Positions 74-62,883 are shown, numbered from the stretch's first letter. The stretch: DNA of 64,000 bases from Candidatus Obscuribacterales bacterium (GCA_965228855.1 CBDDIJ010000002.1:480001-544000); one strand, 5' to 3'. Notes: generated by a model from the sequence alone, not told the origin. Numbers and translations: made by a program.

Positions 74-125
74 TGTCTATGACCCGATGACGGTTTCGGG
101 AGAAAGCGTCAACGCCTCGTAGACA
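74..125. repeat. Dispersed 52-bp palindromic element, copy E1 (TGTCTA-N40-TAGACA)
   Basis: TGTCTA 74-79, ATGACG 87-92, CGTCAA 107-112, TAGACA 120-125; TATAGTAG box at 217-224. Confidence 0.85.
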
Positions 126-234
126 GCCACCCGGTTTTTGACATGCGGAATCCGATAGAGTCGCCCGAAAGCGCTACCGACATGAGGTCCTGAGTTTCGA
201 AACGAATACGCTGGTATATAGTAGTTATTTTGCG

Positions 235-269
235 AAAAAGGAACCAAGAGGTTTAACCCTCCTGGTCCC
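235..269 (-). terminator. Intrinsic terminator of the 321..1631 gene
   Basis: Minus strand GGGACCAGGAGG-gttaaa-CCTCTTGGTTCC followed by TTTTT. Confidence 0.7.
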
Positions 270-320
270 AGTCCTCATGCGACTCAACGGTTTGAACGAT
301 GAGTGCGCACTTGAAAAAAC

Positions 321-1631
321 TTAGTCGGAGCCGCCACCGGAGTTGGTATCACCACCGAGACGCTTGAACGAATCGTAATAGCGCTTGAGCTCAGCGAACT
401 CAGCAGCCATTTGCGTCGCGCCCTTGCCGGACGTGACGTCGTTTTCGTACTCCTTCGCGACCTCGACGAGACTGCGGCCGGCTTGGCGCAGCTGAACATC
501 GGCAGCGATACAGTTGATCAGCGCCAGGCGACGCGTGAACAGCTTATCCGTGGTTGCGCAACGATCGCCGCCGATTTGACGCTCGAGCTCCTCGCATTCG
601 ACCACCGCCTCGCGCAACGTGGCGAGCACCTCGCGGCGCAGAGCCTCAGCGGCAACGAGTTCGGAATACACGACGATGCGCTGGCTTTCGAACATCACAC
701 GAGCGCGTTTCTGACGCTCCTGCTCGTCCTTCATCGCCTTCGGACCGGCGTATCCACACGTGCCGGGCGTGCCATCGAGCACATTCAGCAACCGATTGGC
801 ATACTGACGCTCGTTGACCTTGCCCTTCTCACCGCTCCGAAGCGCGTTGGCGGCTTCTCGAGCCTTGCGCACAGCGATGTCGAGAGCGCTCAGCAAGTCT
901 GAGAGCTTCTGCAGCGCTGGATGCTTGTCGTTGACGGTGTCGAGGAAAGGTTGAGCCGGGCAGACCCGCATCTCGTCTCGCTTGAAGTCCTTGCCGATGG
1001 CAGCGGGAGTGACAACCCCCTCCAGCGGATAGAGCTGCTGAAGCGAGGACCTCAGATCCTGATTCCCGAACGAATAGGTCCGCAACGACTTCACGAATTC
1101 GGCGACTTCGGCGAACGCGCCCTTGAGCGCAGCCAGTGAAGCCGAATCGCGATCAGCGTCGACGCGATTGGGAATGGAACCTTCTGCGAACATCGGGCGC
1201 CGGCGGCGGATTTCCTCGGCGCGCAGAGCCGCGTTGACCAGGATCGGCCGAAGCCAGGCATCAGCCGAGTGACGCTGTTCGCTGCTCGCCTGCTCAACGA
1301 CAAGCTTGATCGCTTCGAACAGATCACGCTGCACATTGCCGAGACGATCGCCCATCGAATAGAAACCGAAAAGGAGCGATTGCGCCAGAATCAGCGCCTC
1401 ACGCCGCTCCACGCGGAGAAATTCGAGACCCTCGGGATTATCCAGATTGGACTCGATTCGAGTCGTCCAGGCGCTCGCCTCCGTCTGCTGGAGAGAACGC
1501 GTCACTCCTTCGGCACGCCTTGTGATATCGGCGTCGAGTGCCAGCGCTTCTTCCATCATGCGTTCCAGCGCTTGCAGCGCGGGAGGATGAATTTCTTGGA
1601 CTGGGGTTTGGTACATAAGTCTTGTCTCCAT
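321..1631 (-). CDS. Soluble helical/coiled-coil protein with two degenerate MCP-signalling-like motifs
   Basis: 436-aa ORF, biased codon use, no TM segment; ILVNAALRAEE...GAFAEVAEFVKSL and LALINCIAADVQLRQAGRSLVEVAKEY. Confidence 0.7.
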   Translation of the reverse strand: METRLMYQTPVQEIHPPALQALERMMEEALALDADITRRAEGVTRSLQQTEASAWTTRIESNLDNPEGLEFLRVERREALILAQSLLFGFYSMGDRLGNVQRDLFEAIKLVVEQASSEQRHSADAWLRPILVNAALRAEEIRRRRPMFAEGSIPNRVDADRDSASLAALKGAFAEVAEFVKSLRTYSFGNQDLRSSLQQLYPLEGVVTPAAIGKDFKRDEMRVCPAQPFLDTVNDKHPALQKLSDLLSALDIAVRKAREAANALRSGEKGKVNERQYANRLLNVLDGTPGTCGYAGPKAMKDEQERQKRARVMFESQRIVVYSELVAAEALRREVLATLREAVVECEELERQIGGDRCATTDKLFTRRLALINCIAADVQLRQAGRSLVEVAKEYENDVTSGKGATQMAAEFAELKRYYDSFKRLGGDTNSGGGSD

Positions 1632-3534: not shown

Positions 3535-3586
3535 TGTCTATCCACGAATGACGCATTTGCCGAAATCCGGCATTGTCAGATAGACA
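3535..3586. repeat. 52-bp palindromic element, copy E2
   Basis: TGTCTA 3535-3540, ATGACG, CGGCAT, TAGACA 3581-3586; boxes CTACTACG 3451, TATAGTCA 3646, TATAGTAG 3762. Confidence 0.85.
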
Positions 3587-3844
3587 AGCGAATTCGAGGG
3601 CGATATTTTTGGCAAGTACAAATCTACCAATATCTTGCATATTAATATAGTCAATTATTACTTCAATCCTTTATACCGCATCACGCAACGCTCACAGAAG
3701 ACGGCCAAAAGTCAGCCTCGCAAAACTCAGAAATTTTTTTCAGCCCGATTATACTTATCCTTATAGTAGCAAAGTTTTTTAAAGGCTCGGTTCAGAAAGG
3801 GGGTTCCTTTCCAAACCGAGCGAAACCGGGATTGAACCCGTGCG

Positions 3845-4430: not shown

Positions 4431-6155
4431 TTACTCGCTCTCGCCGTCCCGCTTCGCCTCTTCCTTGCGGCGGCGATTGGCGAGGACGTGATTGCTGGCA
4501 GCGAAGACGATGAGCAGCATGAACAGAGCGCAGCCGGCAGCGATTGCCACCGGGTTGCTCGTCCAGTCGCCCTCGCCGAACTGCTTCTTGGCGTCGTCCT
4601 TGACGGGCGCCGTCAGCGGGTCCGGGTGGTTCGCCTTCAGCAGCTTGATGGCTGCGTCGAGCTGTTCGTCGACCTTGGCGCCCGGCGTACGCTCGACCAC
4701 GACCTGCGGGGGGATGCCCTTGTTCGACAGGTTGTAGCCGGACGGCGTCAGGTAGTCCATGGTCGTGATGTACATGGTCCCACCCGGAGGGATGCCACCC
4801 GAGATGTAGCCCACGCCCTTGCCGTAGGTCGTGGTACCGAGGATGGTGGCGCGACCGGAGTCCTTGAGGGCACCGGTGACGATCTCCGAGGAGCTCGCCG
4901 AGCTGCCGTCGACCAGAACGACCATCGGGACCTTGTAGAAGTCCGTGATCAAGGTGACGATCTCTTGCGGGGCGCCCATGAAGTCATGCTTCAGCGGAGC
5001 GATCGTCTCGTAGCTCTGGTGAGTGACCATGCGGCCCTCACGCGTAGTGCTGTTGACGATGGTGCCCTTCTCCATGAAGATGCTGGCCACCTGCAGCGCG
5101 ATGTCGACGACGCCGCCGGGGTTGCCGCGCAGGTCGAAGATCAGCCCATTGAGATGCCCACCGGAAGCCATGTGCATCTGCTGCAGACCGCGGACGAACA
5201 GCGGGAAAGCCTGCTCATCGAACTGGGGAAGACGGATGTAGCCGATGTTACCCGGCATGACATTGACGACGACCGCAGCATCGGCAGCCGGCGCTACGGT
5301 GAGAACTTCCTTGTACTCCTTGCCGTTGCGGCTGAGCACAAGTTCGATCCTCGCGCCGTCTTTGCCCTCGAGCAGAGCTTCCGCGTCCTCCTTGCTGAGC
5401 CCCTTGAGCGGCTTGCCGTTCGCGGAGATCAGGTCATCGTACTTGTGGATGCCCGACTTGTAGCTCGGCGTTCCCCAAGTCGTGTAGTCGACCCGGTAGG
5501 AGCCATCCGGCTTCTGGACGATCCAGATGCCCAGGTCGGAGATTCCGGCCTCGGCGTTGGCGCGCGCCTTCTTGATCTCGGTCGTGGTGATGTACTTCGT
5601 CCAGGGGTCGTGCAGGCTGCCCAGCATCTCCTTGAGAGCGTTTTCGAGCTCCTCGGGAGTGGTGAGCTTGCCCTTGTACTTGTCCTGGTACTTGTACCAA
5701 TCCGCCAGCCGATCCGGGTCGTGGTACGACTGGGCGACCTGCTGCCAGACCTTCTGATAGACGGTCTCGAGCATCTCGGGCGTGGGCTTGCCGGGCGCGC
5801 CCTGATTGCGACCGAAGAGCTGCTGGATCATCCGGGGGTCCGTGATGATCTGCAGTTCGCCGGGAACCTGCGGAGCGACCACCGGAGTGTCCGGCTTGGC
5901 AGGCGCGGCGCTCGGCGCAGGGGTAGTTGGCGCCGTCGTGGGGGCGGCGCTCGGAACAGGCGTCGGCGCGGGCGTGGGCACGGCCGGGGTCTGCGGGGCA
6001 GGAGCCTTGGGGGCTCCGGAATTCGGGACGACATCCAGCCCCAGGAAGGGATGGGCGGGCGTAGCTTTCGGCTCATCGGCGACGGAGTACGTCGCGCCAG
6101 TGACCGCGAGGAACGCCAGCATCGTCGCGCTGACGATGATTTTTCTTACCGACAT
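4431..6155 (-). CDS. S41A carboxyl-terminal processing protease (CtpA/Prc-like) with C-terminal TM anchor
   Basis: Signal peptide, Pro-rich linker, PDZ, DLRGNPGG, SASSSEIVTGALKD, TYGKG. Confidence 0.9.
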   Translation of the reverse strand: MSVRKIIVSATMLAFLAVTGATYSVADEPKATPAHPFLGLDVVPNSGAPKAPAPQTPAVPTPAPTPVPSAAPTTAPTTPAPSAAPAKPDTPVVAPQVPGELQIITDPRMIQQLFGRNQGAPGKPTPEMLETVYQKVWQQVAQSYHDPDRLADWYKYQDKYKGKLTTPEELENALKEMLGSLHDPWTKYITTTEIKKARANAEAGISDLGIWIVQKPDGSYRVDYTTWGTPSYKSGIHKYDDLISANGKPLKGLSKEDAEALLEGKDGARIELVLSRNGKEYKEVLTVAPAADAAVVVNVMPGNIGYIRLPQFDEQAFPLFVRGLQQMHMASGGHLNGLIFDLRGNPGGVVDIALQVASIFMEKGTIVNSTTREGRMVTHQSYETIAPLKHDFMGAPQEIVTLITDFYKVPMVVLVDGSSASSSEIVTGALKDSGRATILGTTTYGKGVGYISGGIPPGGTMYITTMDYLTPSGYNLSNKGIPPQVVVERTPGAKVDEQLDAAIKLLKANHPDPLTAPVKDDAKKQFGEGDWTSNPVAIAAGCALFMLLIVFAASNHVLANRRRKEEAKRDGESE

Positions 6156-6238
6156 GGTATTGTCCTCAAGTTAAAGTTGCGGCAAAGGCGCGACACCACA
6201 TCTGGTATCGCGCCTTGCCTTTGTTGAAACTAGAAGTC

Positions 6239-7855
6239 TTACTTGGTCGGCGCCGCCGGAGCGGTGCCGGTGCCGTTGCCGCTGAGCGCCTTCTTGGCCG
6301 CGTCGAGTTCCTTCTGGAACGCATCGACATTGGCCTTGCGAGTGTCCTCGCTCTTCTTGGCGTGAGCTTCGGCCTTGGTGACCGCATCCTGGACAGCCTT
6401 CTTGGCGGCGTCCAGCTGCATGTCCTTGGTCGGATCGACGATCACCTCATCGGGGTTGGTCACCTCGATATCGGGAATCACGCCGACCCAGTCCATGGGC
6501 ACACCACCGGGGAGGAACTCGAAGGTGGTGACGTGGATGTTGCGGTCGAACGGCAGCGGCACGACCTGCTGGCCGACGCCCTTGCCATGCGACGTCTTGC
6601 CGACGATGACGGCGCGCTTGTTGGCCTGCAGGAGCCCCGAGAGAATCTCGGAAGCCGAAGCAGAGCCTTCGTCGATGAGGACAGCGATCGGCATGTCCTC
6701 GGGAACGATCATCTCCTCGCGTTCACCGCTGACCATCCCGATCTTGCCGGGCTGCGCGCTGGACTTCATCAGCTGGAGAGCGAACTCCGGCTGCAGGACG
6801 GTCTTGGTCTCGACCATGGCGTCGCCACGGCGCTCCTTCATGGTCAGCAGGGTGCCTTCCTTGAGGATGAACTGACCGACCGTCTCGACGGCATCCAGGC
6901 GACCGCCCGGGTTGCCGCGCAGGTCGATGACGATGCCCTTGCCCTTGGCGGCGTTGGTGAGCGCCTCGTACATCTCCTTCTCGACGAACCGGCTGGACCA
7001 GTCGTTGAGCTTGATGTAGGTGATGCCGTTGCCGAGGTCCTTGACCTTGGTCACCTTGGACACGACCTGGGCGCGGGTGATGTCGATGGTCTGTTCGACC
7101 GTACCACCCTTGCCGTCGTCGCGCGTGACGGTGATCTTGACGACGGTGCCCGCCTTGCCGCGAATGGTCTTCACGACATCGTCCAGGCTCTTGCCGTTGA
7201 CGTCGGCGCCGTCCACCTTGGTGATCCGGTCACCCTTCTTGATGCCGGACTTCTCGGCAGGACCACCTTCCATCGGCTCTTCGACGATGATCGGATGGGC
7301 GTCCGAAACCGCTTTCAGCGGCTCGAAGATCTGCTTGAGCTGTTCCTTCGTGGCCTTCTCGCCGAGCTTGCGAGCCTGGAGGATGGCTTCCGCCTGCCCC
7401 TTCAGCTTGAGCTGGGCGCCGATGCCGACGAGCGTGGCATCGAACTGCTCGCGCTCGGCCTTGTTGCGAGCCGGCGGGTTGTAGTAGTCGAAGCGCTGCC
7501 CGAGGCTCTGGATCATCTCATAGACAGCCTTGTCGGCCGACTCTTCGGTGTCGAGAGCGTTGTCATTGGCATGCTTGTTCTCCCACTCGGCGGCCCACTT
7601 GGCGCGCGCGGCGGGGTCCGACAGCGTGATGTGCCGGTCGCGGAGGTTTTCGAAAACCTCCTTGTAGAGCTTCTTGCCGTCGAACTGGACGGCCGGTGCG
7701 GTCGCCGGAGCCGACTTGGCGGGGGCGACGGTGGACTGAGCGACAGGGCTCGAAACAGGCGTGTCGTCTGCCGACGCGAAGGTCAGCGGCGCGGACAGCA
7801 TGAAAGCCGCCACGGCAAGAGCGAACACGCGCGAGGCGATGTTTCGCGATTTCAT
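6239..7855 (-). CDS. S41A carboxyl-terminal processing protease (CtpA/Prc-like)
   Basis: Signal peptide, PDZ (GPAEKSGIKKGD), DLRGNPGG, SASASEILSG, SHGKG. Confidence 0.92.
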   Translation of the reverse strand: MKSRNIASRVFALAVAAFMLSAPLTFASADDTPVSSPVAQSTVAPAKSAPATAPAVQFDGKKLYKEVFENLRDRHITLSDPAARAKWAAEWENKHANDNALDTEESADKAVYEMIQSLGQRFDYYNPPARNKAEREQFDATLVGIGAQLKLKGQAEAILQARKLGEKATKEQLKQIFEPLKAVSDAHPIIVEEPMEGGPAEKSGIKKGDRITKVDGADVNGKSLDDVVKTIRGKAGTVVKITVTRDDGKGGTVEQTIDITRAQVVSKVTKVKDLGNGITYIKLNDWSSRFVEKEMYEALTNAAKGKGIVIDLRGNPGGRLDAVETVGQFILKEGTLLTMKERRGDAMVETKTVLQPEFALQLMKSSAQPGKIGMVSGEREEMIVPEDMPIAVLIDEGSASASEILSGLLQANKRAVIVGKTSHGKGVGQQVVPLPFDRNIHVTTFEFLPGGVPMDWVGVIPDIEVTNPDEVIVDPTKDMQLDAAKKAVQDAVTKAEAHAKKSEDTRKANVDAFQKELDAAKKALSGNGTGTAPAAPTK

Positions 7856-8249
7856 GGTATTGCTCCTAAAGTTGAATTCTTCGGTTGCGACCCCTTTGGA
7901 TGGGGACAGGGTTAGAAGAGTGGTCTAGAGCGTTGAAAACATGAGGTGACGGCTTGCCACGCGCATGGGAGTCAAAGGATGGCCGCAGGTTTGGACAACT
8001 GCCAGCCATTCCTTGACACCACATGTGGTGACAAGGTCCAGTTCGGGATGAAGCGTGCTCTAACGCCCGACCCGTTACGCACGAGTCGACTGGAACCACC
8101 TGAGGGAAGGCGCACTTGACGATGAGCGTCCGCATCTGCTCAGCGACAACTACGCCCTCCCGACATCCGGCACCGGTCTGATTGCTCAGAACCGGCACCG
8201 AATGTGGTGGCTTAGGTCGACTGGCAGACTGTTGCCGATGCTACCGTAT

Positions 8250-9389
8250 TTAGCGCTGCTCCCAGGGCCGCGGGACGAGCTGCTCGATCTGCTTGAGCAG
8301 TTCGCGATTCTCCTCATCCGAGAGCGTGGCACCGTGGTACAGCACCCGTTCGCACTTCGTCAGCGCACTCTCGATCTTGTCGAGCTCGGGGTCACCCTCG
8401 AGCCGGTCGCGCACCTCGAGGAAGGTGGCGGGTTCGATCGGCACGCCCTTGGTCGCGCCCAGATAACGCCGGAACGCCGACGCGATCTGCTTGTAGTGCC
8501 TGTACTCGAAGCCTTCCGCCTTCGCTTCCGCGAAGACCTTGTCGAAGACCTTCCAGGCAGCCGCCTTGGGAGGCAGCACCTTGCGCGGACGCACGCGATT
8601 GATGTACTTCGCCACTTCGATGCCGGGCAGGAGCCCGATCATGAAGATGGCGAGCGCAATCACGGGGATGATCATCCAGGACGAACCGAGAGGCTTGGCC
8701 TCCAGGTCGCCCTCGAGCAGCGCTTCGCCGTTGTCCGCCGTGGGCGAACGCGAGACGACGAAGTCAGGCGTGGTCAGGCGCTTGAAGTTGGGCGTCTTGC
8801 CGTCGGGCGCAAGCTCGGTGGCGTAGCGCAGGTCGAGGTTGAACACCACGTTGTCCTTCGGCACCCAGGTCACGACCGTGAGGTCGAGCCGATAGAGCAC
8901 CTTGCCGTTCTGCAGCTTCTGGCTGCGAACCACCGCCGGGGCAGCGAGTTCGAAGTCGGAGCCCTCGAAGCCGAGGACTTCCTGCTTCAGCGACGTGAAG
9001 TCGATCGTGACGTTCGGGTCGACGGCGATCAGCACGACCAGGGGAATCCGGTCGCCGATGCGGTAGCCGAAGTGGCGCGCGTTGCCCAGTCGAATCTCGA
9101 CCTTGCCGTCTTCGCAGACTTTGCGGACCGGATTCTGGGGCTTGGGAGGCTCGGGCGGCTGAGCATTGTAGCCGCCGCCGTCCTCGGGATATTCATAGGG
9201 GTAGCCGCCGTACGCCGGCGCCTGTGCCCCCGATGCGTCGGCCATGACACCGCAGGCGGTGCTGGCCTTGCTCTGGGCGGAGCCCGGACCGGCAGCCTGC
9301 GCCGCCGCATCCTGAGCCATCGCGGTTGCTCCGACGGCGACCGTCAGAGCGAGAACCAGAGCCTTCAATCCAAACAGTTTCGTTTTCAT
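8250..9389 (-). CDS. MxaA/BatD-like exported, membrane-anchored protein of the MoxR operon
   Basis: Signal peptide, RHFGYRIGD motif resembling the MxaA N-terminus, TM helix near aa 265, context. Confidence 0.6.
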   Translation of the reverse strand: MKTKLFGLKALVLALTVAVGATAMAQDAAAQAAGPGSAQSKASTACGVMADASGAQAPAYGGYPYEYPEDGGGYNAQPPEPPKPQNPVRKVCEDGKVEIRLGNARHFGYRIGDRIPLVVLIAVDPNVTIDFTSLKQEVLGFEGSDFELAAPAVVRSQKLQNGKVLYRLDLTVVTWVPKDNVVFNLDLRYATELAPDGKTPNFKRLTTPDFVVSRSPTADNGEALLEGDLEAKPLGSSWMIIPVIALAIFMIGLLPGIEVAKYINRVRPRKVLPPKAAAWKVFDKVFAEAKAEGFEYRHYKQIASAFRRYLGATKGVPIEPATFLEVRDRLEGDPELDKIESALTKCERVLYHGATLSDEENRELLKQIEQLVPRPWEQR

Positions 9390-9401
9390 GATTTTGGCTC
9401 C

Positions 9402-10346
9402 TTACCGACGGTGTCCAGCGAACAACCGCATGAGTTTGGGATAAGCGGCGACGCCTTCTTCGGTCGAAACAACCGTCCAGTCGACGTGCGCCGAACGGAA
9501 GAACTCGAAGAGGGCAGTCTCATGCCGTTGGAAGTTCTCGGCGAACTTGGCGCGATTGGCCTTGCTCAGCCAGATCGAACGGCGCTCGCCAGTGAGCAGG
9601 TCCTGGAAGGTGTAAACACCGAACCCGCTGGGGAGCTCGCGTTCACGCAGGTCCTGCACACAGATGCAGACGACGTCATGCTTGACGGCCGTCCGCTTCA
9701 GAAGCGTCTTCTCCTCGTCCGTGAGGTTGAGGAAGTCCGAGATGATGAACACCAGGGACCGGCTCTGTCCGCTGACGGCCTTGAGGGCCTTCATCAGACC
9801 AGTGGTACCGTCCTTGGTGTCTCCACCGCGGCGGGCGGCACGCTCGATCGCCGAACCTTCGACAATCGAGGCAAGCGCGGGGAAGAGCATGACCTTGGCG
9901 CTGCGCGCCGGGAGGTAACGCTCGACCGCCTTTTCCGAGTAGGCGATGATGCCGACGCGGTCGCCGGTTTCGTCCGCCGACTTGATGATCGAACCGGTCA
10001 GTTCGCCGGCAAGATGCCGTTTGATGGTACGGAACGAACCGAACTCCATCGTCATACCGGTGTCGACCAGGCAGTACATCTTCACGTCACGCGGTTCCCG
10101 ATAGAAAACCGTGCAGACCGTCTGACCGCCCGTTTGTGCCGTGGCGTGCCAGTCGATCGAACGCGGATCGTCACCGGGCTCGTAAACACCGCGAGAAACA
10201 AGATCGTATCCCGTATTCCCGCGCTTCTTGCCCTTACGGCCAGCCCCGGAGGGCATGGCAGTCGAGCTGCGCCAGGTAATCGGGATCGGATGAGAAACGA
10301 CCCACTTAACGAGTTCGCGGACCGTTTCCCGTGTATTTGTCTTCAT
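9402..10346 (-). CDS. DUF58 family (MxaS-like) protein
   Basis: YEPGDDPRSIDW.ATA, DTGMTMEFGS, FIISDFL, D.RERELP. Confidence 0.9.
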   Translation of the reverse strand: MKTNTRETVRELVKWVVSHPIPITWRSSTAMPSGAGRKGKKRGNTGYDLVSRGVYEPGDDPRSIDWHATAQTGGQTVCTVFYREPRDVKMYCLVDTGMTMEFGSFRTIKRHLAGELTGSIIKSADETGDRVGIIAYSEKAVERYLPARSAKVMLFPALASIVEGSAIERAARRGGDTKDGTTGLMKALKAVSGQSRSLVFIISDFLNLTDEEKTLLKRTAVKHDVVCICVQDLRERELPSGFGVYTFQDLLTGERRSIWLSKANRAKFAENFQRHETALFEFFRSAHVDWTVVSTEEGVAAYPKLMRLFAGHRR

Positions 10347-10445
10347 GTGAATACTCCGGAAGCGGTTTGAGTTAGTTCAGCCGAGAGCGGCGATCACTAA
10401 ATAGCGACCGCCGCTCTGGCTTGGTAATAAGTACCGAACGACCGG

Positions 10446-11498
10446 TTACTTGCCCTTGGCGCGACCGACCACCGGGACCTGGGACTCGACCGCCGTGATG
10501 AACGTGTCGGTCTGGAAGCGATCGAACGTCGCTTCCTGAGTCAGGATGAGGCGGTGACGGACGGCGTCGCGGTAGACCGACTTGACGTCATCCGGCTCGA
10601 TGTGAGTCCGGCCGTCGAGCCAGGCGTTGCAGGCGGCGCCCTTCTGCACCCAGATGCCGAGACGCGGCGAGGCACCGTAGGCGATGCGCTCTTCGAACGA
10701 CTTACCCTCGGCGTCGCGGATCTTGCCGAACGACGGGTCGGTCGGACGAGTGGCGCGCATCAGGTCGACGATGTACTCGCGGATGGCGTCCGAAGCGTTG
10801 TCGACGACCTGCTGGACTTCCGTGCGGATGGCGCGGAGGTCGGACAGATCCATGACCGGCTCGACCTTCTCGGTGGCGTTGCGACCGTGGACCTGGGTGT
10901 TGGCCAGGACCTTGATCTCGTCGGCGCGCGAGACGTAGCCCATCATGATCTTGAACATGAAGCGGTCGAGCTGCGCTTCCGGCAGAGCGAAGGTGCCTTC
11001 CTGCTCGACCGGGTTGATGGTCGCCATGACCATGAACGGATCGGGCAGCATGATGCGCGGCACGCCGGGGATGTCGGCGAAGCGCTCCTGCATCGGCTGC
11101 AGCAGGGCAGCCTGGGTCAGGGCGATGCCGCGGTTGAGCTCGTCGGCCAGGAGCAGGTTGACGGCCGACTTGTAGTTGGCGTCGACGGCGCCCAGGAGCG
11201 GGCCGGGAACGAAGTCGTACTTGCCGGTGACGGGGTTGAAGACCCGCGTGCCCTTCACGTCGGAGGGCTTCAGGTCCGGGTCGAACTGGATGCGGCCGGA
11301 GGTCGCACCGTCGATGGTCTTCTGCAGGGTGTTGATCATCAGAGTCTTGGCCAGACCGGGCATCGACTCCAGAAGCACGTGACCGTCGGCCATCAGGGCG
11401 AGGGTGAGGGCGCGCTTCACGGGGGTGTAACCGACGATCACCTTGTCCATCTCGGTGGACAGGGCGTTCGCCTTGATAACGAGCTGATTCTTAGACAT
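10446..11498 (-). CDS. moxR: MoxR family AAA+ ATPase (MxaR-like)
   Basis: HVLLESMPGLAKT Walker A, RIQF.PDL.PSD, LLADELNR, ATINPVEQEGTFALPEAQLDRF. Confidence 0.93.
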   Translation of the reverse strand: MSKNQLVIKANALSTEMDKVIVGYTPVKRALTLALMADGHVLLESMPGLAKTLMINTLQKTIDGATSGRIQFDPDLKPSDVKGTRVFNPVTGKYDFVPGPLLGAVDANYKSAVNLLLADELNRGIALTQAALLQPMQERFADIPGVPRIMLPDPFMVMATINPVEQEGTFALPEAQLDRFMFKIMMGYVSRADEIKVLANTQVHGRNATEKVEPVMDLSDLRAIRTEVQQVVDNASDAIREYIVDLMRATRPTDPSFGKIRDAEGKSFEERIAYGASPRLGIWVQKGAACNAWLDGRTHIEPDDVKSVYRDAVRHRLILTQEATFDRFQTDTFITAVESQVPVVGRAKGK

Positions 11499-11600
11499 GG
11501 TCGTAATCTCCGTTTGGGATTTGAGAGAAAGGTTGCTACGAAAGAGGCGGACCATCGGGTCCGCCTCTAGAGGTTTGCGTTGGACGAAACACTGGAGTCG

Positions 11601-12677
11601 TTAGCGAACCAGGTCCTTCCTGGGCAAGACTCCTCGGATGAACAAGCCGGTCAGAAGGATGATCGCCAGCCCCAGGGGGTACTGGAAGATCGGATCCTCT
11701 TTGGTCTCGGCTTTGCTTCCACCGAGGGAGGCTGCCCAGCTGATTTTCAGCTCGCCGCCGTTACCCGGATCGAGTGGAAGGTACTCGGCGCCAGACATGG
11801 CGACGAGCTTCGAGAGATTGCTCTCCTCACGGCCGGACAGCGACACCTTGCCTTCCTCCTGGAAGTATCCGGTGAGCTGCCCTTCCTTGTTGTATTCGGG
11901 AATCGGCGACGGCGAAAGCGAGCCGACGCCGACGACGATGAAGCGAATGCCCTTTTCCCGAATCTTCGCGACCGCGTCGGCGAGAATCTTCTCGTCGCCG
12001 GTGAAGCCGCCGTCGGAGAACAGGACGATGACCTGCTGCCGATTGGCGACCTTGTCGCGGTCCAGCATCGCCAGAGCCATGGTCAGACCTTCGGCGTAAT
12101 CGGAACCGCCGCCAGGGGCGTTGCCGACACGAATCCAGTTGTCCATGACCCACTTGGTCGACGTCCAGTCGTCGGTGAGGGGAATCTGCTCGAAGCCGTT
12201 GCCCGAGTAGGTGACGATGCCGAGCTGGTTTCCGATGATCGCAGGCATGACCTGCGTCTGGAGAATCAGCTTGGTGTAGTCGAGGCGGTTGCCGTACGGT
12301 CCCGGCACCAGGTCAGGCGTGTAGCCGTTCTTCGAGGGCATGAACGGGCGGTATTCCTCCGCCGCCATGCTCTTCGAGACGTCGATCACGCCCACGACCT
12401 GCAAGCTCCCCGCCCGAACATTGGTGGGCAGAGACTTGGAGATGGGACCGGCGGCGGCAGCCACCATAAGCGCGACCGCGATTGCCCACACAGAGGCAAT
12501 CGCGACTTCGCCCGCGAACCTGACTGCGCGCGTGTAGCGCGACACCAGCTTCTCTTCGCCGTATGCCGCACGAGCCTTGCGCCGGAGGTCGTACCCCAGG
12601 TAGCAAAGCCCGTACACAGCAGGGACGACCAGCAAGAGCGCTGTCAGGTAGTGCGGACGCAGGAATGTGATATCCAT
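11601..12677 (-). CDS. VWA domain membrane protein (MxaL/BatB-like)
   Basis: N-terminal TMs, MIDAS DVSKSM, VLFSDG, C-terminal TM. Confidence 0.85.
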   Translation of the reverse strand: MDITFLRPHYLTALLLVVPAVYGLCYLGYDLRRKARAAYGEEKLVSRYTRAVRFAGEVAIASVWAIAVALMVAAAAGPISKSLPTNVRAGSLQVVGVIDVSKSMAAEEYRPFMPSKNGYTPDLVPGPYGNRLDYTKLILQTQVMPAIIGNQLGIVTYSGNGFEQIPLTDDWTSTKWVMDNWIRVGNAPGGGSDYAEGLTMALAMLDRDKVANRQQVIVLFSDGGFTGDEKILADAVAKIREKGIRFIVVGVGSLSPSPIPEYNKEGQLTGYFQEEGKVSLSGREESNLSKLVAMSGAEYLPLDPGNGGELKISWAASLGGSKAETKEDPIFQYPLGLAIILLTGLFIRGVLPRKDLVR

Positions 12678-12689
12678 AGCGTCTTCTCC

Positions 12690-13307
12690 TTACAGAGTGT
12701 TGGGCTTGCCTTTGCCGGGCTGGTCGCCAGGTTCCTGTCCAGGAGCCTGCTTCTTGCCTTGTCCGGGCTGAGGCTTGCCTTTGCCTTTGCCCTTGCCCTG
12801 ACCTTCGGCCTGCTGTTTGTTGTTCTTGAAGAGAAGCTCCAGGTCGTACTTGACCTGCAGGGCTTGCTCCTCCAGGCGAACGACGTCTTCCTTCGTCACC
12901 TGCTCGAAGCCGGGGACGTTGGCATAGTCGTTGCCGGGGTTGAGCCGAAGCGATTCCTTGAAGGCCTCGACGGCGGGCTCAGCCTGCCGGAGTCTCAGGA
13001 GCGCTTTGGCTTTGTGGAACTGCGCGAGAGCCGCACGTTCACGGGAAGGCGCCGGGTACAGGAAGCGCTCCATCCAGGACGACGCCCGGACGCGCTGCTT
13101 GTACACCGCCACGGAACGGTCGAACGCTTCGATCGCGCCCTTCATCCCGTCTTCGTCCTGCGCGGTCTGGTACATGGTGAGACCGACGTTGTAGTACGCC
13201 GCCTGGGCGTCCTGCCACGTCAGAAGGCGGAATCCGAATCCGCCGACAAGCAAGCCGCCGACGAGAATCGCCAGCAGCCACAATCGTGATTTGCTGAAAA
13301 ATTTCAT
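12690..13307 (-). CDS. TPR protein (MxaK/BatC-like)
   Basis: TM anchor, AVEAFKESLRLNP...KYDLELL, low-complexity G/Q/K tail. Confidence 0.75.
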   Translation of the reverse strand: MKFFSKSRLWLLAILVGGLLVGGFGFRLLTWQDAQAAYYNVGLTMYQTAQDEDGMKGAIEAFDRSVAVYKQRVRASSWMERFLYPAPSRERAALAQFHKAKALLRLRQAEPAVEAFKESLRLNPGNDYANVPGFEQVTKEDVVRLEEQALQVKYDLELLFKNNKQQAEGQGKGKGKGKPQPGQGKKQAPGQEPGDQPGKGKPNTL

Positions 13308-13334
13308 TTTCAGGTTTCTCCTAAAGGTTAGCTG

Positions 13335-14318
13335 TTAGGCGTCCTCGCGGACGAGTGCAGCGGCTACGAGGAAGAGGCAGAGCACGAGCCCGGCGCCAAT
13401 CAGGAAGAACTGATAGATGTCGCGATAGCTCACGGTCTTCTCGACCTCAACACGGGATTTCTCGAGTTCGGAGATCTTCTGGAAGCCGGCCTTCATGTCG
13501 GCGCCGTTTCCGACGACGATCACCTGACCGCCAGTGGCTTCCGTGATCTTGCGCAGGTCGTTTTCCGCATTGGGATTGGACCAGCCGATCGCGAGCGTGT
13601 AGATCTTGATGCCGCCCGCTTGCAACATCGGAAGGAGCTGTTGCATGCGCTCCTCCGGAATGGAGTCCTCACCATCGGTGACCATGATGAGAACCTTCGA
13701 CTGAGCCTGACCGAGCTCCTTGAAGTGGTCGACTGCAGCCTGGATGGGACCGGACTCACTGGAGAAGTCGGTGCCACCGCCGTTGTAGGTGCCGGTGCGG
13801 CCCACGTTCTTGAGCTCGATCACGCGCAGGTCCTTCGAAAGGGGCCAGCTGTAATAGACGCTCGTGTCGAACATGAACAGCGCGACGCGATCACCTTCCC
13901 GTTCCTTGACGAACAGGCTGATCGCCTTTTCGGCGAGCTGGATGCGTTTGACGGTCTGAACCGGTTGTCCAGCCGCATCCTTCACTTCACCAGCGACAGC
14001 GAGCTGGTCCGGGTCAGAAATCTGACCTTGCATCGAACCAGAGATGTCGACTGCGATGATGAAGTCACGAGTAATGATCACCTCTTTCTCGCCGACGTCG
14101 GGCAGCTGCGGTCGCGACATGGCGAGGGCAGCGAGCACGAAGAATGCGACAAGAAGGATCTGAGGCAGACGTCCCACGAGGGGAACGGAACGCACGTTGC
14201 CGTGCATGCCGACTTGCGTGTGCCCCAAAGCTCTCCGGCGCCGGTATGCCAGCCACAAGGCGGGCACAGCCAGAAGCGCCAGCAGCATAAACTGCGGGTA
14301 TGCGAACGTGATGGGCAT
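13335..14318 (-). CDS. VWA domain membrane protein (MxaC/BatA-like)
   Basis: F.YP..LLALL N-terminus, ALAMSRPQ, MIDAS DISGSM, GDRVALF.F, MVTDGED; GGAG SD before ATG 14318. Confidence 0.88.
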   Translation of the reverse strand: MPITFAYPQFMLLALLAVPALWLAYRRRRALGHTQVGMHGNVRSVPLVGRLPQILLVAFFVLAALAMSRPQLPDVGEKEVIITRDFIIAVDISGSMQGQISDPDQLAVAGEVKDAAGQPVQTVKRIQLAEKAISLFVKEREGDRVALFMFDTSVYYSWPLSKDLRVIELKNVGRTGTYNGGGTDFSSESGPIQAAVDHFKELGQAQSKVLIMVTDGEDSIPEERMQQLLPMLQAGGIKIYTLAIGWSNPNAENDLRKITEATGGQVIVVGNGADMKAGFQKISELEKSRVEVEKTVSYRDIYQFFLIGAGLVLCLFLVAAALVREDA

Positions 14319-15260
14319 GTTAGCGCTCCAAGTTAGGAAATTTTTGCGATTACCCAAGACAGCAAGGATGCAGGGCATCCAAGCTGGAGGTTTGTAACTG
14401 GATGCAACCGTATGGAACAAGTCCATCCAGATGCAAACAGACCGATAGAGCCCGCAGCGCAAGCCGCGAACTCAGAGGTCGTGCTGAGGTTACCGTCGCC
14501 GAGGCAACTCGTGTCGCCGCGGTGAGAACGATGGCTCGAACAGTTGTTCTCGTTGGCGGACTCACCGACGGCAAGGTAGTGACCCGAATAGAGATTCGGA
14601 GACAGGAGAGGTTGCTCTGCTGTCTGCGAACATCCGGATCACGTGCAGCTCGCTAGGGAGCTGGATTGCTATTGGTCGGAACTGAGAGAGGATGAGCCGT
14701 GTGGATGTGAAACAGTAACCTTAAGGAAAGATGAATGGATGCATTCAATGTACTAAAAGGCAGATATCGAGACAAACCTATAAAACACTAATGAGATCCT
14801 GAACTAGCTCGCATATACATGCATCTCTTGGCCTGCAGCGCTTACAAGACGTTCGCTCACACGGTTTCCGTAACCCCCCGGGCAGCAGCGGAAACGCCCA
14901 TCTACTGACAACTTGAGCACTTTAGATATTTCGTGAACGGTCGGTCAAACAATCCTCTTGATAACATCACGGGCTGCCACTCTTAATAGGTTTCCAAGAA
15001 GTGTTGATATTTAGCGCAGCTTCACGACTGGGCATGTTTAGATATTAGCGCCGCTCGCGCCAACAATCTTAGCCTTTCCTTAACAATTGGGCTCTAAAAT
15101 GTAAAGAGTTTGTCATGCCTCCACGGGCGGTGCCGTATTTGGTACCACCGTGAGCCTTCCGGAACACGAGCCGAAAGCAACTGTTTTTCAAGGTTTAATG
15201 CGCGCAAAACCGCTTGAAACTTGAGCGAGCTAACCCATAACTTTCACCAAGCTGAGCGCG

Positions 15261-19102: not shown

Positions 19103-19244
19103 CTCCAAATCTTCCTACTATATTCCGGCGTATACGCGAAGACCCCCTACTATATTCCGGCGTATCCGGAGATGTCCGGCGAAGCTGCATCGACAGCAGT
19201 CTTAAGACCTGCGACTCCGCGATGGAGTGTGGGAAAGGGCAATT

Positions 19245-19296
19245 TGTCTACGGTACGTTGCCGAAATTCGGCAAATCTGTCTACGCACGATAGACA
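19245..19296. repeat. 52-bp palindromic element, copy E3
   Basis: TGTCTA 19245-19250, TTGCCG, TGTCTA (inner), TAGACA 19291-19296; CTACTATA at 19115 and 19147; TATAGTAA at 19377 and 19424. Confidence 0.85.
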
Positions 19297-19438
19297 AGAG
19301 CAGACGCGTCCGAACAGGCGAAGCGACCCGACCCTCCCGCTGCAGCCCTCGCCGCGATTCTATTTATCCTATCGTATATAGTAACATGGCTATTGGCGCC
19401 ACTGTTTCACTTATCCTATCTTTTATAGTAATCAAACC

Positions 19439-22800: not shown

Positions 22801-22813
22801 GGCTAGGACCTCC

Positions 22814-24085: not shown

Positions 24086-24160
24086 GCGGAATACCTCCTG
24101 CTTCGGTTTAGATGAGAAGCCGGGTAAGTTTGAACCGCCCAGAAAGAGCGGCCGGCATTC

Positions 24161-24250
24161 AAAAAAAAGAGTTGGTGTTTCTGCCGAAAGCCGCTTTTGA
24201 AGCGGATGTTGTCGTATGAACGACGGAGCGGATGGCAGAGAACACCACTC
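24161..24250 (-). other. Multibranch RNA structure ending in a U8 tract (candidate attenuator/terminator)
   Basis: About 16-bp closing stem (24169-24185 with 24234-24250) enclosing two hairpins, followed by T8 on the minus strand. Confidence 0.55.
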
Positions 24251-24409
24251 CCTGAAAAATGTCGAGCCGCTCAACCGAAGCGACCGAAACTCCCGTCAGA
24301 AAATGCAACCAGGCAAGCGAAGGAAGCGAGCGCTCCTATAAAGGAACGCCCGCCTCCTTGCCATTCGCAACATCAAGGAATCTTGCGATTCCTATCTATT
24401 GCTAGCCGA

Positions 24410-26629: not shown

Positions 26630-26689
26630 GGTTTTCACCCTTTCAGAGTTAGTGTGAGACGACGTAAGGAACCGGTTGGATCGGCACCG

Positions 26690-28903: not shown

Positions 28904-29125
28904 ATTTGTCCTCCAATCGTTAGGAGTCTGTTGGCAGAGCCATGAATGAATGTCGGTCGGCAGATGGAGACCCGCGTTTGGCATTCGAATGTCACCAGCT
29001 GGTTTGACACTCGTGCCGATGGCGAGCCGCTCCCTTATCAAGGAAGTTGCTGCCAAACGCGTTTCACACACCTGCATCTGACAAGGAAAACTAACCGCAC
29101 TAACGACGCTGAAGCATCCACCGAT

Positions 29126-34116: not shown

Positions 34117-34344
34117 TATCTACTCCGTTTCCGTTCTCAGACTGAACGACTTCTTTTTTCGCGCCCACGAAACATCGCCGGCCACAATCACTGTCGGTCG
34201 AATGTTACCAGGGATATACCCCGATTGTGAACCGCACACCAGTCTCTCTACTATATGCCGCCATGATTTGTTTCTAGTAATTTCACTTAAACGGCGGGCA
34301 TTTCAGACGATTTCTACGTTCTGTCATCTCAGAAAAACTGCTTC

Positions 34345-34396
34345 TGTCTACGAGACGTTGCCGCTTTTCGCGAAATTCGTCATCGTCTCGTAGACA
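34345..34396. repeat. 52-bp palindromic element, copy E4 (most symmetric copy)
   Basis: TGTCTACGAGACGTTGCCG...CGTCATCGTCTCGTAGACA; CTACTATA 34248; TATAGTAG 34485 and 34511. Confidence 0.88.
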
Positions 34397-34528
34397 AGCG
34401 GGCAAATTTGCCTTGAGTCAGACCAGGTGGATGCTCGAAAGCACCACGGTTACTCATCAGCCGGAAAACACGGATACGCCCGAATATAGTAGTTAATTCT
34501 TACGCTCAAATATAGTAGTAAATTCTTC

Positions 34529-34574
34529 AAAAATCAGAGAGCCTGGAGCTTGGGCAAGCATCCAGGACTCTCTG
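34529..34574 (-). terminator. Intrinsic terminator of the HAD-ydcF block
   Basis: Minus strand CAGAGAGTCCTGGA...TCCAGGCTCTCTG then ATTTTT. Confidence 0.7.
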
Positions 34575-53892: not shown

Positions 53893-53904
53893 TTCGACGG
53901 ACCA

Positions 53905-59598: not shown

Positions 59599-59683
59599 CG
59601 CGAACCCGCTACTATATCACCCCAAAGACAGTTCAAGCACCGGGCGGGCTTTCGGACATCATGATCAGACTTGAGCTTTGCTT

Positions 59684-59735
59684 TGTCTACGAGCCATTGC
59701 CGCTTTTCGTGAAATCCGGCAATGTGTCATAGACA
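59684..59735. repeat. 52-bp palindromic element, copy E5
   Basis: TGTCTA 59684, TTGCCG, CGGCAA, TAGACA 59730-59735; CTACTATA 59609; TATAGTAG 59826. Confidence 0.88.
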
Positions 59736-59959
59736 AACAGGCAAAAAGATAACGGCTTCGGATAGGTGGGCGCCCGAAAGCCCCATGGGTTAACTACTCT
59801 GCCGGATTTGCTAAATACTGCCTTTTATAGTAGCAAAACCGAAGAGGCGAAGACCGCCAGGAACCGAGGGTTCCTGACGATCTCCGGGGCGATTTTCGCA
59901 AGGTGTCGCGTGGGAAGATTCACCTTCCGCAAGCGCAACTCTGCAGAAATCGAAATAGC

Positions 59960-60172
59960 TCAGTCCTGGTCTTTGAACACGATCCCGATGGTGACGAGCA
60001 TGTTCAGGAAGGCGTTGACCATGAAGAACATGGTCCACTGCAGGTCGTTCGCTTCGTTGAAGTGGTGAGCTCCGACGAACGACGAGATGGTGATGAAGAG
60101 CGCGATGCAACCGCGAACGCGATCGCTCTTGCTCGAAATACCGGTCCCGGTGGGTTTGAACATCGGGGTCAT
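59960..60172 (-). CDS. Small 2-TM membrane protein translationally coupled to ftsH
   Basis: TAATG overlap with the ftsH stop, GGAGG SD, 70 aa MTPMFKPT...FKDQD. Confidence 0.6.
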   Translation of the reverse strand: MTPMFKPTGTGISSKSDRVRGCIALFITISSFVGAHHFNEANDLQWTMFFMVNAFLNMLVTIGIVFKDQD

Positions 60173-62358
60173 TAGAGCACCTCCTTCTTCTTGGCGGGCG
60201 AGATGTCGATCACGAGCTTCTTGGGGTCGACCTTGGACGGATGGGTCTTCTTGAACTCCAGCCAATCCTGCTCGATCATGGTCTCCTTCTCGCGAAGGAT
60301 GGCGACGAGCGCTTCGAGGCGTTCCCTGTCGGTCTCGATGATGTAGACGGCGAGGTCGTAGCAGGCATTCGCGATGCGCCGCCACTCGTCGTCGATCTCG
60401 TCCATGAGCTTGGGACCGACCGAGGAGATCGGACCGCTGCCCATGCCGCGCATGCCAGTGCTGCCGCCGGCGCCGACCGAGATCATCCCGAGACGGGACA
60501 TACCCCAGCGCGTCACCATGGTGTGAGCCATACGGCAGCCCTGCTCGAAGTCGTTGGAAGCACCGCTGTCCATCTTGCCGAGCAGCACCATCTGAGCGGC
60601 ACGACCCGCCATCGCCATGACGATGCGAGCGACGCACTGCTCGAAGTCCATGCCGTAGCGATCCTCGCCGGGCATGCTCTGAACGTAGCCGAGCGCCTTG
60701 GACCGATTCATGATCGTGATCTTCACGACCGGGTCGGCACCAGGCATCACGTCGGTGGCGATGGCGTGACCGCCCTCGTGCACCGTCGTGTTGTTCTTGT
60801 TGTCCTCCGACATCGCCTTCTGGCGCTCGGGATTCGCACCGCCGTAGCGGACGAAATCGATGCCTTCGTCGAAGTCGGTGTTCAGGATGACGGCGCCGGC
60901 AGCCTGCAGGCTGGCAATCGCTTGCGCAATCGCAGCTTCCACGGCTTTCTCGTTGACCTTGCCATCGACCAGCGGAATTTCCGGCAGGTCGAAACCGTGA
61001 CGATCGGCGGCGAGGAGAGCAGCGCGGCTGCAAGCACCTTCGATTTCGGCGCCGCTGTAGCCGTAGGTGCGCTTCGCCAGAGCCGTCAGCTCGACGTCCT
61101 GAGCGAGCGGCTTGCCGCGGGTGTGGATCTTGAAGATGGCAGCGCGACCTTCAGTGGTCGGCAGATCCACCGTGACCTGCGCGTCGAAACGGCCCGGACG
61201 CAGAAGCGCGTCATCGAGCATGTCGACACGGTTGGTGGCGGCGAGCAGGAAGAGACCTTCGTTGTCGTTGATGCCGTCCATCTCGACGAGCATGGCGTTG
61301 AGCGTCTGTTCACGCTCCTGGTTGCTGCTCTCGCCGTGACCGCCACCGCGCTTGCCGCCCACCGCATCGATTTCGTCGATGAAGATGAAGTGCGGCTTGC
61401 CAGTTTTGCGAACCTTGGCACGACCGGACTCGAACATGTCGCGAACACGGGACGAACCCACGCCGACGAACATCTCGACGAAGTCGGAGCCGGAGGTTGC
61501 TTCGAACGAGCCGTCGGTTTCGCCCGCGAGGGCGCGTGCCAACAGCGTTTTGCCGGTACCCGGAGGTCCGACGAGCAGGATGCCCTTCGGCAGCTTGGCT
61601 CCGAAGAACTTGTAGAGCCAGCGACGCTTGACCGCCTTGGCGAGACGACGAAGTTCCTTGACCGCTTCATCGGCACCGGCGACATCGTCGAACGTCACCA
61701 CGCGCATCTGCTTCGTCTTGTCGTCCGAACTCGTCGAGCGAGCCTTGCCGAAATTGGCCATCTTGCCACCCGGACCGGCAGCACCCATGGCCGCGCGATT
61801 GCGGTTGGACATCCAGACCATGGCGAGAACGAGGATGACGATCGGACCGAAGGTCCAGGCGAGACGCTGAAGCGAAGAGGTGGAATCATCTTCCGCCTTC
61901 CAGAGAATCTTCTTCTCGCGCGCGGTCTTCAGGACCTCGGCACGGCCGCCCTGTTCAGGCAGGGTGACGAAGTACTTGGTCGAGTCACCGGTCTTGTAGA
62001 CGGCGATGCGGTCGACGCCGTTGAGGAAGGTGATCGAGCTCACGGCACCGGGGTTGGTGTCCATGAGGAGGAACAGCTCGGACGCCTGCATGTAGGCGGT
62101 CGGCTGAACGCCACGTCCACGAGACGGAGCGGCGGGTGAAGCGGGGGAGGTCTGGGTGCTGGTTCCGACTTGAGCTCCCGGCGCCTGAACGGCGGGGGGT
62201 GCCTTGGTCACCACGGGCGCGCCACGCGTGTGAACAGCGGGCGGGGTGACAGTGCGGACGGGTCCTTCCGAGGTGAGGACAAACCCGACAAACGCGGCAA
62301 TCAGCGGAATCGCAAGCATCCAGATGACGAACTGCTTGTTTTCAGGTGAGAGTTTCAT
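60172..62358 (-). CDS. ftsH: FtsH family ATP-dependent Zn metalloprotease (accessory paralog)
   Basis: Two TMs, [25 protein letters not shown]...[27 protein letters not shown] before ATG 62358. Confidence 0.92.
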
Positions 62359-62831
62359 ATCCGTTACTCCAGATTTGAAGGCTGGATTAGACGCAGCCTT
62401 TGTCCGGCATATTTGCGGGACGAGCGAAAAAGGGTAAGAACACCGCTCGAGTGACTCGAACGATCCATGACGCGCTTGCAACTGAGACTCACCCACCGTA
62501 AAGACCCGCCGTCACTGTTTAAGACGCGCGAAATCTGATTTTGGAGGTGAAAAGGTTATTGTGCCTTGGTTTTCTCAGAGAGTTGCAGAAGCTGATATGT
62601 AATTCGAACCTACGCGCCGAGGCATCCTCATGACAATAGGCCGATAGTCGTAACTGACAACTATTTACCATATGAACTTTTATGTTTCCTTAAGAATCCT
62701 TGAAACCTAGCGCTAGATTAGCGTAGCGGCAGAGAAGACAGAGCCACTACTATCACATACAGGATCCGCAAAATCGTACAGAGCCCTAGCAGACCGGCTT
62801 TCCGGGTTCCAGCTATCCGTAGCCCCGAATT

Positions 62832-62883
62832 TGTCTACGAACGGATGACGGAATGCGAGAAAATCGGCATCCCCTGAGAGACA
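62832..62883. repeat. 52-bp palindromic element, copy E6 (right end GAGACA)
   Basis: TGTCTA 62832, ATGACG, CGGCAT, GAGACA 62878-62883; CTACTATC 62747; TATAGTAG 62986. Confidence 0.8.

Follow-up and report, generated by a model that had tools for sequence, protein, structure and literature searches.

The DNA analysed here is a stretch of 64,000 nucleotides (the window), corresponding to positions 480001-544000 of contig C2 of G000, the 8.2-Mb, six-contig genome of a Candidatus Obscuribacterales bacterium. It contains six copies of a 52-bp palindromic element built of four half-sites, hereafter the core. Four-half-site repeats of this kind form a family located beside genes whose products combine a phospholipase D (PLD)-like domain with an XRE-type helix-turn-helix (HTH) domain, and the G000 core is its most expanded member. 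The PLD-HTH gene is flanked by its own repeats and is under purifying selection. Our preferred reading, in which we place somewhat more confidence than doubt, is that the four-half-site repeat is likely bound by the PLD-HTH protein encoded beside it, and that this protein would place new copies in intergenic DNA around the replication origin, in a way that resembles REPIN-RAYT systems. The repeat-plus-protein system is real and apparently undescribed, with strong sequence evidence for the pairing and a proposed mechanism; a partial coverage of the literature gave no account of such repeats in Obscuribacterales or of repeats associated with PLD-HTH genes. A preliminary description of the window, which dealt with the core, mentioned neither the outward motifs, nor the clustering around the origin, nor the associated gene family reported below.

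The 52-bp core

The pattern TGTCTA-N40-TAGACA occurs exactly at five places in the window (E1 to E5, Table 1), where 0 are expected from 100 shuffles. The preliminary description had counted six copies of fixed geometry; five of these are exact, and the end of the sixth, E6, has one mismatch. Genome-wide, 60 exact TGTCTA/TAGACA pairs are separated by a spacer of 40, as against at most two at every other spacer between 0 and 100. A genome scan with a 52-column position weight matrix (PWM; 54 bits), in which copies were counted above 25 bits, detected 210 cores in G000 with a clean gap below them, and the reversed genome contained none at or above 0 bits. Because variants in the length of the centre (1-2 bases) and of the N7 linkers (1 base) contribute merely two extra sites, the geometry of the core is fixed, as had been proposed.

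The matrix also upheld the earlier view of the core as two 19-bp palindromes with a 33-bp offset, which are arranged around a T-tract/A-tract centre. The invariant part of the half-site is GKC/GMC plus a YpG step. The central bases vary freely; the N7 linkers, described earlier as divergent, are constrained as YS-NNN-SR with coupling between neighbouring bases. About 25 of the G000 copies form a subtype, B, and often occur as 73-bp arrays. Eighty of the 210 cores lie between convergent genes, 101 between tandem genes and 15 between divergent genes, and 14 overlap a crude gene call; divergent regions are hence avoided (15 of 196 intergenic copies). The distance from a core to the upstream gene end is mostly 100-300 bp.

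We compared 62 half-cores between G000 and the related genome G007, namely those with an alignable arm and with identity at 44 or more of the 52 bases. The two genomes differ at 1.6% of the high-information core columns, 5.6% of the low-information columns, 12.1% of the arm positions and 12.3% of 4-fold sites; the corresponding 1.6% for the motif found in the arms (see below) is biased low by the selection of motifs, and gene conversion could add to the conservation effect. Within-core pairing was 0.664 versus 0.616 in shuffled sequences (162 non-redundant copies), and the 19-bp halves contain no covarying self-pairs (z -6.6 to +0.5). The strongest couplings are those of adjacent bases, which would fit shape readout. 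An RNA hairpin or terminator was considered and rejected: single strands do fold (z -1.3 to -5.0), yet covariation is weak overall and absent within the halves. No Rfam model matched the window at its gathering score. The tetramers GTAG and CGTC are present, but within palindromic boxes. The contrast between 1.6% and 12.3% divergence, the fixed geometry and the weak hairpin covariation support selection on a dimer-of-dimers protein-DNA architecture, as the preliminary description had suggested. On sequence evidence, the core behaves as a double-stranded protein site under selection.

PLD-HTH genes and repeats of the same design

Open reading frames in two of the 11 listed intervals between closely spaced G007 cores encode related proteins of ~257 aa with a PLD-like domain (PLDc_2, E 2e-5, below the Pfam cut-off) and an XRE HTH. 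G000 has five homologs, all of which are located in the origin region. The closest of them (C2:103074-103844, outside the window) has type A cores at 172 and 48 bp, and in three genomes it stands between cores whose arms all point outward; a second G007 copy has 6+4 type-B cores around it, again with outward arms only. The clade A/B genes are well supported (ultrafast bootstrap/SH-aLRT 100/100), and dN/dS of the PLD-HTH gene is 0.06-0.07. Residues H107, K109, D114, G121, S122 and N124 as well as a CxxC motif are invariant in 34 PLD-HTH sequences. The AF2 model (pLDDT 92) has, according to Foldseek, a fold like those of NucT (E 7e-7), Zucchini and Nuc, with a weaker match to TrmBL2. The HxK...GSxN motif and the Nuc-like fold point to a member of the PLD (HKD) superfamily and thus a predicted nuclease. 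Searches of the ESM Atlas returned generic HTH clusters only, under 0.9, and PADLOC gave only partial MkoC/HTH matches.

Gene and core have a similarly narrow range. The strict core pattern is present 183 times in G000, 171 times in G007 and 0 times in the other 102 genomes of the family, and PLD-HTH matches with >50% identity are likewise found solely in G000 and G007 among these 104 genomes. At the level of the whole protein family, PLD-HTH is present in 56 of the 104 genomes, is absent at E<=1e-30 from 300 further genomes drawn from the phylum, and forms 327 clusters at E<=1e-30 in a 50% protein library. A pattern search over 185,579 species gave matches in Candidatus Obscuribacterales, placing G000 with the non-photosynthetic relatives of cyanobacteria, and at one contig end that we read as chimeric. 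Transfer across phyla was rejected as its explanation, as the matches on this Acidobacteria-labelled contig are confined to the last ~7 kb, share ~93% identity with G000 and start within a conserved gene, indicating an assembly chimera. Phages contained 0 pattern matches, and one PLD-only match at the end of a 950-aa frame. Genome G006 has two degenerate cores, one of them with both arms at an orthologous locus. G002 has arm-end-like motifs without cores (7 versus 3 in the control), which weakly hints at an older presence.

We then asked whether other PLD-HTH genes are accompanied by repeats of this design. The flanks of 51 PLD-HTH loci were scanned de novo for four similar half-sites at an offset of 32-34 (scored out of 28). 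Scores of at least 25 were obtained for 14 of the 51 loci, in several genera, and of at least 26 for 12; at control offsets of 27-29 and 37-39, one and two of the 51 loci, respectively, reached 26, and none of 119 control gene flanks reached 25 (Fisher p about 1e-8). Five loci had been seen by eye before the scan, and without them 8 of 46 still reach 26. An earlier scan near the PLD-HTH genes of four other genomes, which demanded one exact word at four places, had been negative and is superseded by the half-site scan.

Different paralogs have different repeat sequences beside them, and several of these repeats are dispersed. In G000, type C repeats (CTGCAA-N6-TTGCAG twice, with a 33-bp offset) form 102-bp arrays in 11 clusters, eight of them in the origin region, and bracket a cassette holding another PLD-HTH paralog; G000 has 44 of them and G007 has 39, and the 102 other genomes have none. 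A gene-adjacent repeat of G013 occurs 64 times in G013 itself and not once in the four other genomes searched, and the gene-adjacent repeats of G042 and G010 have 10 and 8 copies. All reversed-pattern controls for dispersed repeats gave 0. A T-tract/A-tract centre is common to the repeat families, and HTH identity correlates weakly with half-site similarity (Mantel rho 0.29, p 0.011, 12 proteins). G013 (L316, L321-L329) also has a further palindromic repeat, AGAAAAA-N7-TTTTTCT-like, which often abuts the G013 arrays and is possibly another family of the same kind.

Origin region, arms and turnover

The dnaA gene of G000 is located at C2:793 kb, coinciding with the GC-skew minimum, and 174 of the 210 cores lie at C2 77-1121 kb, i.e., between -716 and +328 kb of dnaA, in 13.4% of the chromosome. 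Cores occupy 54 of 123 convergent intergenic regions inside this origin region and 11 of 947 outside it. No even spacing of core loci was seen, these being no more regular than random (P = 0.66). In G042, which belongs to a second genus and whose origin region was covered with pattern and family searches, all 10 repeats are located at 2.28-3.04 Mb of the single 5.0-Mb contig, with dnaA at 2.83 Mb (-555/+207 kb); the G013 assembly consists of 50 contigs. A chromosomal ParB was not found in G000, the sole ParB-like match being a 727-aa protein on the atypical contig C4.

These positions bear on the main rival interpretation, according to which PLD-HTH binds the repeat as an organiser or regulator of the origin region (RacA/ram-like or TrmBL2-like). 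The sites would then be under selection by the host, and their copies would come from ordinary recombination and slippage instead of cutting by the protein. We consider this unlikely, though deserving of serious attention. The concentration around dnaA in both G000 and G042 speaks for it, and its asymmetry recalls the 25 RacA regions, at -412 to +200 kb (PMC4914108); moreover, the loci are long-lived (one orthologous composite persists in G006), ParB was found solely as the C4 match, and TrmBL2, among the fold matches, is an archaeal chromatin protein. The organiser interpretation is difficult to reconcile with a repeat sequence that differs per paralog, with the lack of the G000 core in 102 of 104 family genomes, with copy numbers that vary from 8 to 210, with the irregular spacing of the loci, with invariant catalytic residues and with the presence of several repeat families in one genome.

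The ~1.05-Mb origin region (C2:62-1125 kb), which includes the whole window, also differs in composition: GC content at third codon positions is 0.61-0.79 versus 0.53-0.57 elsewhere in G000, and climbs toward the elements in all codon families (0.73 within 1 kb, 0.57 at 12-25 kb). Translational selection was rejected as the cause, given that AAG, GAG and CAG rise too. Since orthologs of these genes in relatives without cores are equally GC-rich, GC content was not taken as evidence; the region is an old compositional domain. C2:1-61 kb (GC 0.66) and contig C4 (GC 0.29-0.66) are both unlike the remainder of G000, and are probably an island or contamination because G007 connects C2:62 kb to the end of C5.

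Most cores are accompanied by arms with an outward-facing motif. Read outward from the cores, TATAGTAG is present in 163 of 322 arms versus 1.2 expected, and 236 of the 292 TATAGTAG in G000 lie within 500 bp of a core. Allowing at most one mismatch, it is found in 213 of 330 outer arms, and in reverse orientation in 28 of 420 arms. The distances between motif and core are stepped by ~11 bp: 240 of 242 fall in 66-68, 76-80, 86-92 or 98-103 nt, bins that cover 21 of 60 positions. The arms contain A-tracts and T-tracts with a 10-10.5-bp period, and, as judged by eye, a terminator-like hairpin belonging to the flanking gene usually lies 10-25 nt away from the motif.

Stepped distances are typical of activator-promoter pairs. 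The core could thus be an upstream activator site and each TATAGT the -10 box of an outward promoter, producing short antisense or downstream transcripts. TATAGT indeed matches TAnnnT, and 58 motif-bearing arms point at a gene start. However, 150 of 208 motif-bearing arms point at a gene 3' end, usually 10-25 nt from the terminator-like hairpin; ordinary genes show no excess of TATAGTAG upstream (4 versus 5 on the other strand); variation affects the -11 A (TCTAGTAG), whereas TAGTAG does not vary; and the motif is absent from the other repeat families. We consider outward promoters very improbable. A de novo promoter search by expectation maximization yielded no usable motif.

Comparison of relatives provides information on the age of the loci. 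Among 320 orthologous intergenic regions of G000 and G007, elements are shared by both genomes in 55, restricted to one in 3 and lacking in 262. A third, metagenomic relative has 99 cores, of which 66 could be anchored; 59 of these fall next to a G000 core. Length changes of at least 50 bp affect 31 of the 55 element-bearing and 22 of the 262 element-free regions (p 2e-14). The duplicated unit consists of a core, one arm, TATAGTAG and mostly 6-9 nt; tandem junctions measure 6-9 nt in 23 of 36 cases and 15-21, 27 or 33-34 nt in the others, and tandem periods peak at 73, 144-146 and 156-157. Units of a core and one arm are common to distant loci, including two pairs with 52/52 identical cores, and a related strain has, in one contig, 96 other letters from the core edge onward in place of the ~133-nt right arm of E4. 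The statement that the copies are not recent thus stands for the loci, which are old, and fails for the core-plus-arm units, which are still duplicated and exchanged.

Cores are also targets of other elements, as all seven IS110 copies found are inserted in them. These belong to two families of identical copies (C2:774714, 858575 and 1120784; and C2:197226, 988082, C5:861390 and 1461431), one inserted in the outer and the other in the inner box of the core. The non-coding ends of these copies likely encode bridge RNAs directed at the repeat. REPs are likewise reported to be IS110 targets (PMC1525189).

The composite of core and phased arm sites might alternatively be an attP-like site of a tyrosine integrase that captures gene cassettes. 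Its ~230-bp layout and several arm-core-gene-core-arm arrangements, with outward arms only, are in line with this, and the arms may be comparable to those of lambda and Tn916. Hybrid type-A cores, expected from crossover within the core, are however absent among 29 discordant arm mappings, synteny is collinear across the first 400 kb compared, and genes for integrases of arm-binding size are 11-150 kb from any core. The Xer-like protein searched, one of two encoded in the origin region, is not co-distributed with the cores, since it is present in 7/7 genomes of the genus. Both Xer-like genes (C2:923144-924055 and 369775-370713) have catalytic motifs that look altered (TGMK/TGIK, QVLRD); the former is 83% conserved across the genus. 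These results make an attP-like site hardly credible. Taken with the freely variable central bases, they do not support the tyrosine-recombinase or attC idea of the preliminary description. The resolvase (PF00239) and histone-fold (PF00808) models gave 0 matches.

Relative to L038 and L168, G000 lacks a core at C2:1001890-1003782, where a 1.9-kb cassette carrying a PLD-HTH paralog has taken its place up to precisely the right edge of the core; the composite at this locus is undisturbed in two relatives (G007 and the metagenome). That such a cassette replaced a G000 core that is intact in relatives favours a reading in which PLD-HTH genes are frequent passengers at unstable sites and the cores are bound by another host protein, e.g., the MerR/RacA-like HTH protein of C2:82811-84028. 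This protein matches the RacA DNA-binding domain (E 4e-4) and MerR_1, its gene lies between elements, and the ram consensus TGACGCCGGCGTCA has TGACG/CGTCA in common with the inner boxes. We nevertheless judge this reading improbable: the HTH is virtually identical in relatives without cores (70 of 104 genomes match), and one protein cannot explain unrelated half-sites with the same 33-bp design beside different PLD-HTH paralogs. The gene (L243:7811-9061, minus strand) is family-wide and encodes a RacA/MerR-like HTH, a coiled coil, a disordered linker and a small C-terminal domain; its product is a candidate chromosome-anchoring protein in its own right.

If the PLD-HTH protein does bind and copy its own repeat, the partner of the window cores would be the protein of C2:103074-103844. 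Two HTH dimers would sit on the two palindromes on one helix face (33 bp, ~3 turns) with the A/T-tract centre between them, and paired PLD domains would nick the DNA via a phosphohistidine, as in BfiI. From such nicks, tandem arrays at near-whole helical turns and ectopic copies may then arise by strand transfer or by repair in the host, and in the G000 lineage the arm ending in TATAGTAG would delimit the copied unit on its far side. Copies might be kept near oriC by local spreading, a higher copy number or a benefit to the host. A bolder proposal, about which we are rather more doubtful than convinced, is that Obscuribacteraceae carry a new class of self-propagating DNA element, in which a PLD nuclease with a swappable HTH would mobilise or recombine its own repeat of four half-sites as a transposase or recombinase that needs no metal, with up to hundreds of copies seeded only in the origin region and hundreds of paralogs, each with a different readable target.

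Several points weigh against copying by PLD-HTH. The offset and thresholds of the half-site scan were chosen after G000 had been seen, and its loci are kin and not independent; no clear repeat of four half-sites was seen at 37 of the 51 loci, among them the very gene flanked by type-B cores (score 23) and three G000 paralogs out of five (21-23). Other genes are bracketed by cores too, G000 retains ~25 type-B cores without a B-type gene, and the co-distribution of clade A/B genes with cores would hold for any gene private to G000 and G007. As IS110 elements target cores, PLD-HTH genes could be visitors as well. New loci are rare (the 3 one-sided versus 55 shared regions given above), phasing of the distinct tandem periods is weak (R 0.25, unique periods), and no target-site duplication was found in 52 two-armed composites, where repeated 6-9-mers are no commoner than in shuffled sequences; 5-mers gave 24 versus 15.8 +/- 3.4, in one window only. 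Finally, the TATAGTAG arm is outside the general design, because the G013 and type C repeats are without it.

To our knowledge, persistent short bacterial repeats have so far been tied to HUH (RAYT) or DDE transposases. A PLD-fold enzyme keeping its own repeat would, if true, be new chemistry in DNA mobility. HTH-DNA recognition could then be studied in a library supplied by nature, the 327 protein clusters, in many of which a candidate site lies next to the gene. With confinement to the oriC region in two genera and no chromosomal ParB found, how these bacteria define their origin domain becomes directly testable, and the pairing reduces to a small protein and a 52-bp site that can be tested at the bench.

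Table 1. Cores and outward motifs of the window, numbered from its first nucleotide.
Feature	Position	Strand	Remarks
Core E1	74..125		52-bp four-half-site palindrome, 53.3 bits, between convergent genes
E1 left partner motif	just upstream of window start		78 nt from E1
E1 right outward TATAGTAG	217..224	+	91 nt from E1
Core E2	3535..3586		no motif at a stepped distance; nearest TATAGTAG 3762-3769, 175 nt off
Core E3	19245..19296		exact pattern and PWM
E3 left outward motifs	19115..19154	-	TATAGTAG 19147-19154, 90 nt from core; 32-nt duplicate 19115-19122; family D8
E3 right outward motifs	19377..19431	+	TATAGTAA 19377-19384, 80 nt; duplicate 19424-19431
Core E4	34345..34396		exact pattern and PWM
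E4 left outward TATAGTAG	34248..34255	-	89 nt from core
E4 right arm	34397..34530	+	TATAGTAG at 34485-34492 (88 nt) and 34511-34518
Core E5	59684..59735		exact pattern and PWM
E5 left outward TATAGTAG	59609..59616	-	67 nt from core
E5 right outward TATAGTAG	59826..59833	+	90 nt from core
Core E6	62832..62883		ends GAGACA; 44.9 bits
E6 left outward motif GATAGTAG	62747..62754	-	77 nt from core
E6 right outward TATAGTAG	62986..62993	+	102 nt from core

An orphan arm end is present at window ~32315-32322 (minus strand), with TATAGTAA and arm features (29 bits) and no core within 400 bp. The window also contains a tandem pair of genes for PrkA-type ATPases together with DUF444 and SpoVR genes (20953-29077), and a MoxR/vWA cluster with two S41 peptidases (4431-14462), all of ordinary families. 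Elsewhere in G000, 21 tRNA gene calls fall within 3.5 kb (C3:724518-727973), with a type-B core close by at C3:729322.

Comparison with known systems

Sites of attC type are defined by RYYYAAC...GTTRRRY ends and same-orientation cassette arrays. The core resembles them in having four boxes in an imperfect palindrome; it differs in its TGTCTA...TAGACA ends, in forming no cassette array of one orientation and in being located mainly between convergent or tandem core genes. Like miniature inverted-repeat transposable elements (MITEs; PMC3733652), the repeats are non-coding, 70-300 bp long and near gene ends. Unlike MITEs or insertion sequence ends, they have no terminal inverted repeat with target-site duplication. 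By the features compared, the element is not a REP, an attC site, a MITE or a ram site.

The RacA/ram system of Bacillus subtilis has in common with the cores palindromes placed asymmetrically around oriC, YpG steps and the TGACG/CGTCA present in the inner boxes; ram is a 14-bp GC-rich palindrome, TGACGCCGGCGTCA, found in 25 regions (PMC4914108). The elements described here are instead two-palindrome units of 52 bp with a different consensus, in up to 210 copies and private to the lineage, and the RacA-like HTH of G000 is unchanged in genomes without cores, showing no co-variation with the sites.

The DNA-binding domain of BfiI differs from the XRE HTH and CxxC of PLD-HTH. The resemblance to BfiI, Nuc and Zucchini lies in a single HxK PLD domain with a predicted Nuc/NucT-like fold; BfiI also pairs a PLD with a DNA-binding domain and can transfer DNA ends by transesterification through a covalent intermediate (PMC2475615). 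PLD-HTH is set apart by its XRE HTH and CxxC linker and by its self-flanking, dispersed repeats. No methyltransferase was noticed beside PLD-HTH, although no search was aimed at one.

The closest parallel is with REPIN-RAYT systems (10.1101/2021.07.10.451892; PMC3733652). In both, a conserved low-copy nuclease-type gene is flanked by its own short palindromic repeats, which are extragenic, with convergent or tandem genes on either side, multiply slowly, group into mosaic clusters and serve as IS110 targets; and repeats look degenerate where the gene clade is missing, here in G006. REPs are, according to PMC3733652, spread throughout the genome at <20 bp from stop codons, whereas the cores are concentrated near the origin and mostly lie 100-300 bp from the upstream gene end. 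The RAYT model PF01797 had 0 matches in G000 (95% complete), while the control gave a signal in 6 of 14 genomes, and the enzyme is a predicted PLD nuclease with an XRE HTH, not an HUH/Y1 transposase. Instead of a GTAG/CGTC-tagged hairpin (20-40-bp stem-loop), the repeat has a fixed four-half-site duplex design, and, unlike in REPIN-RAYT systems, many paralogs have private repeats, with copies confined to the origin region.

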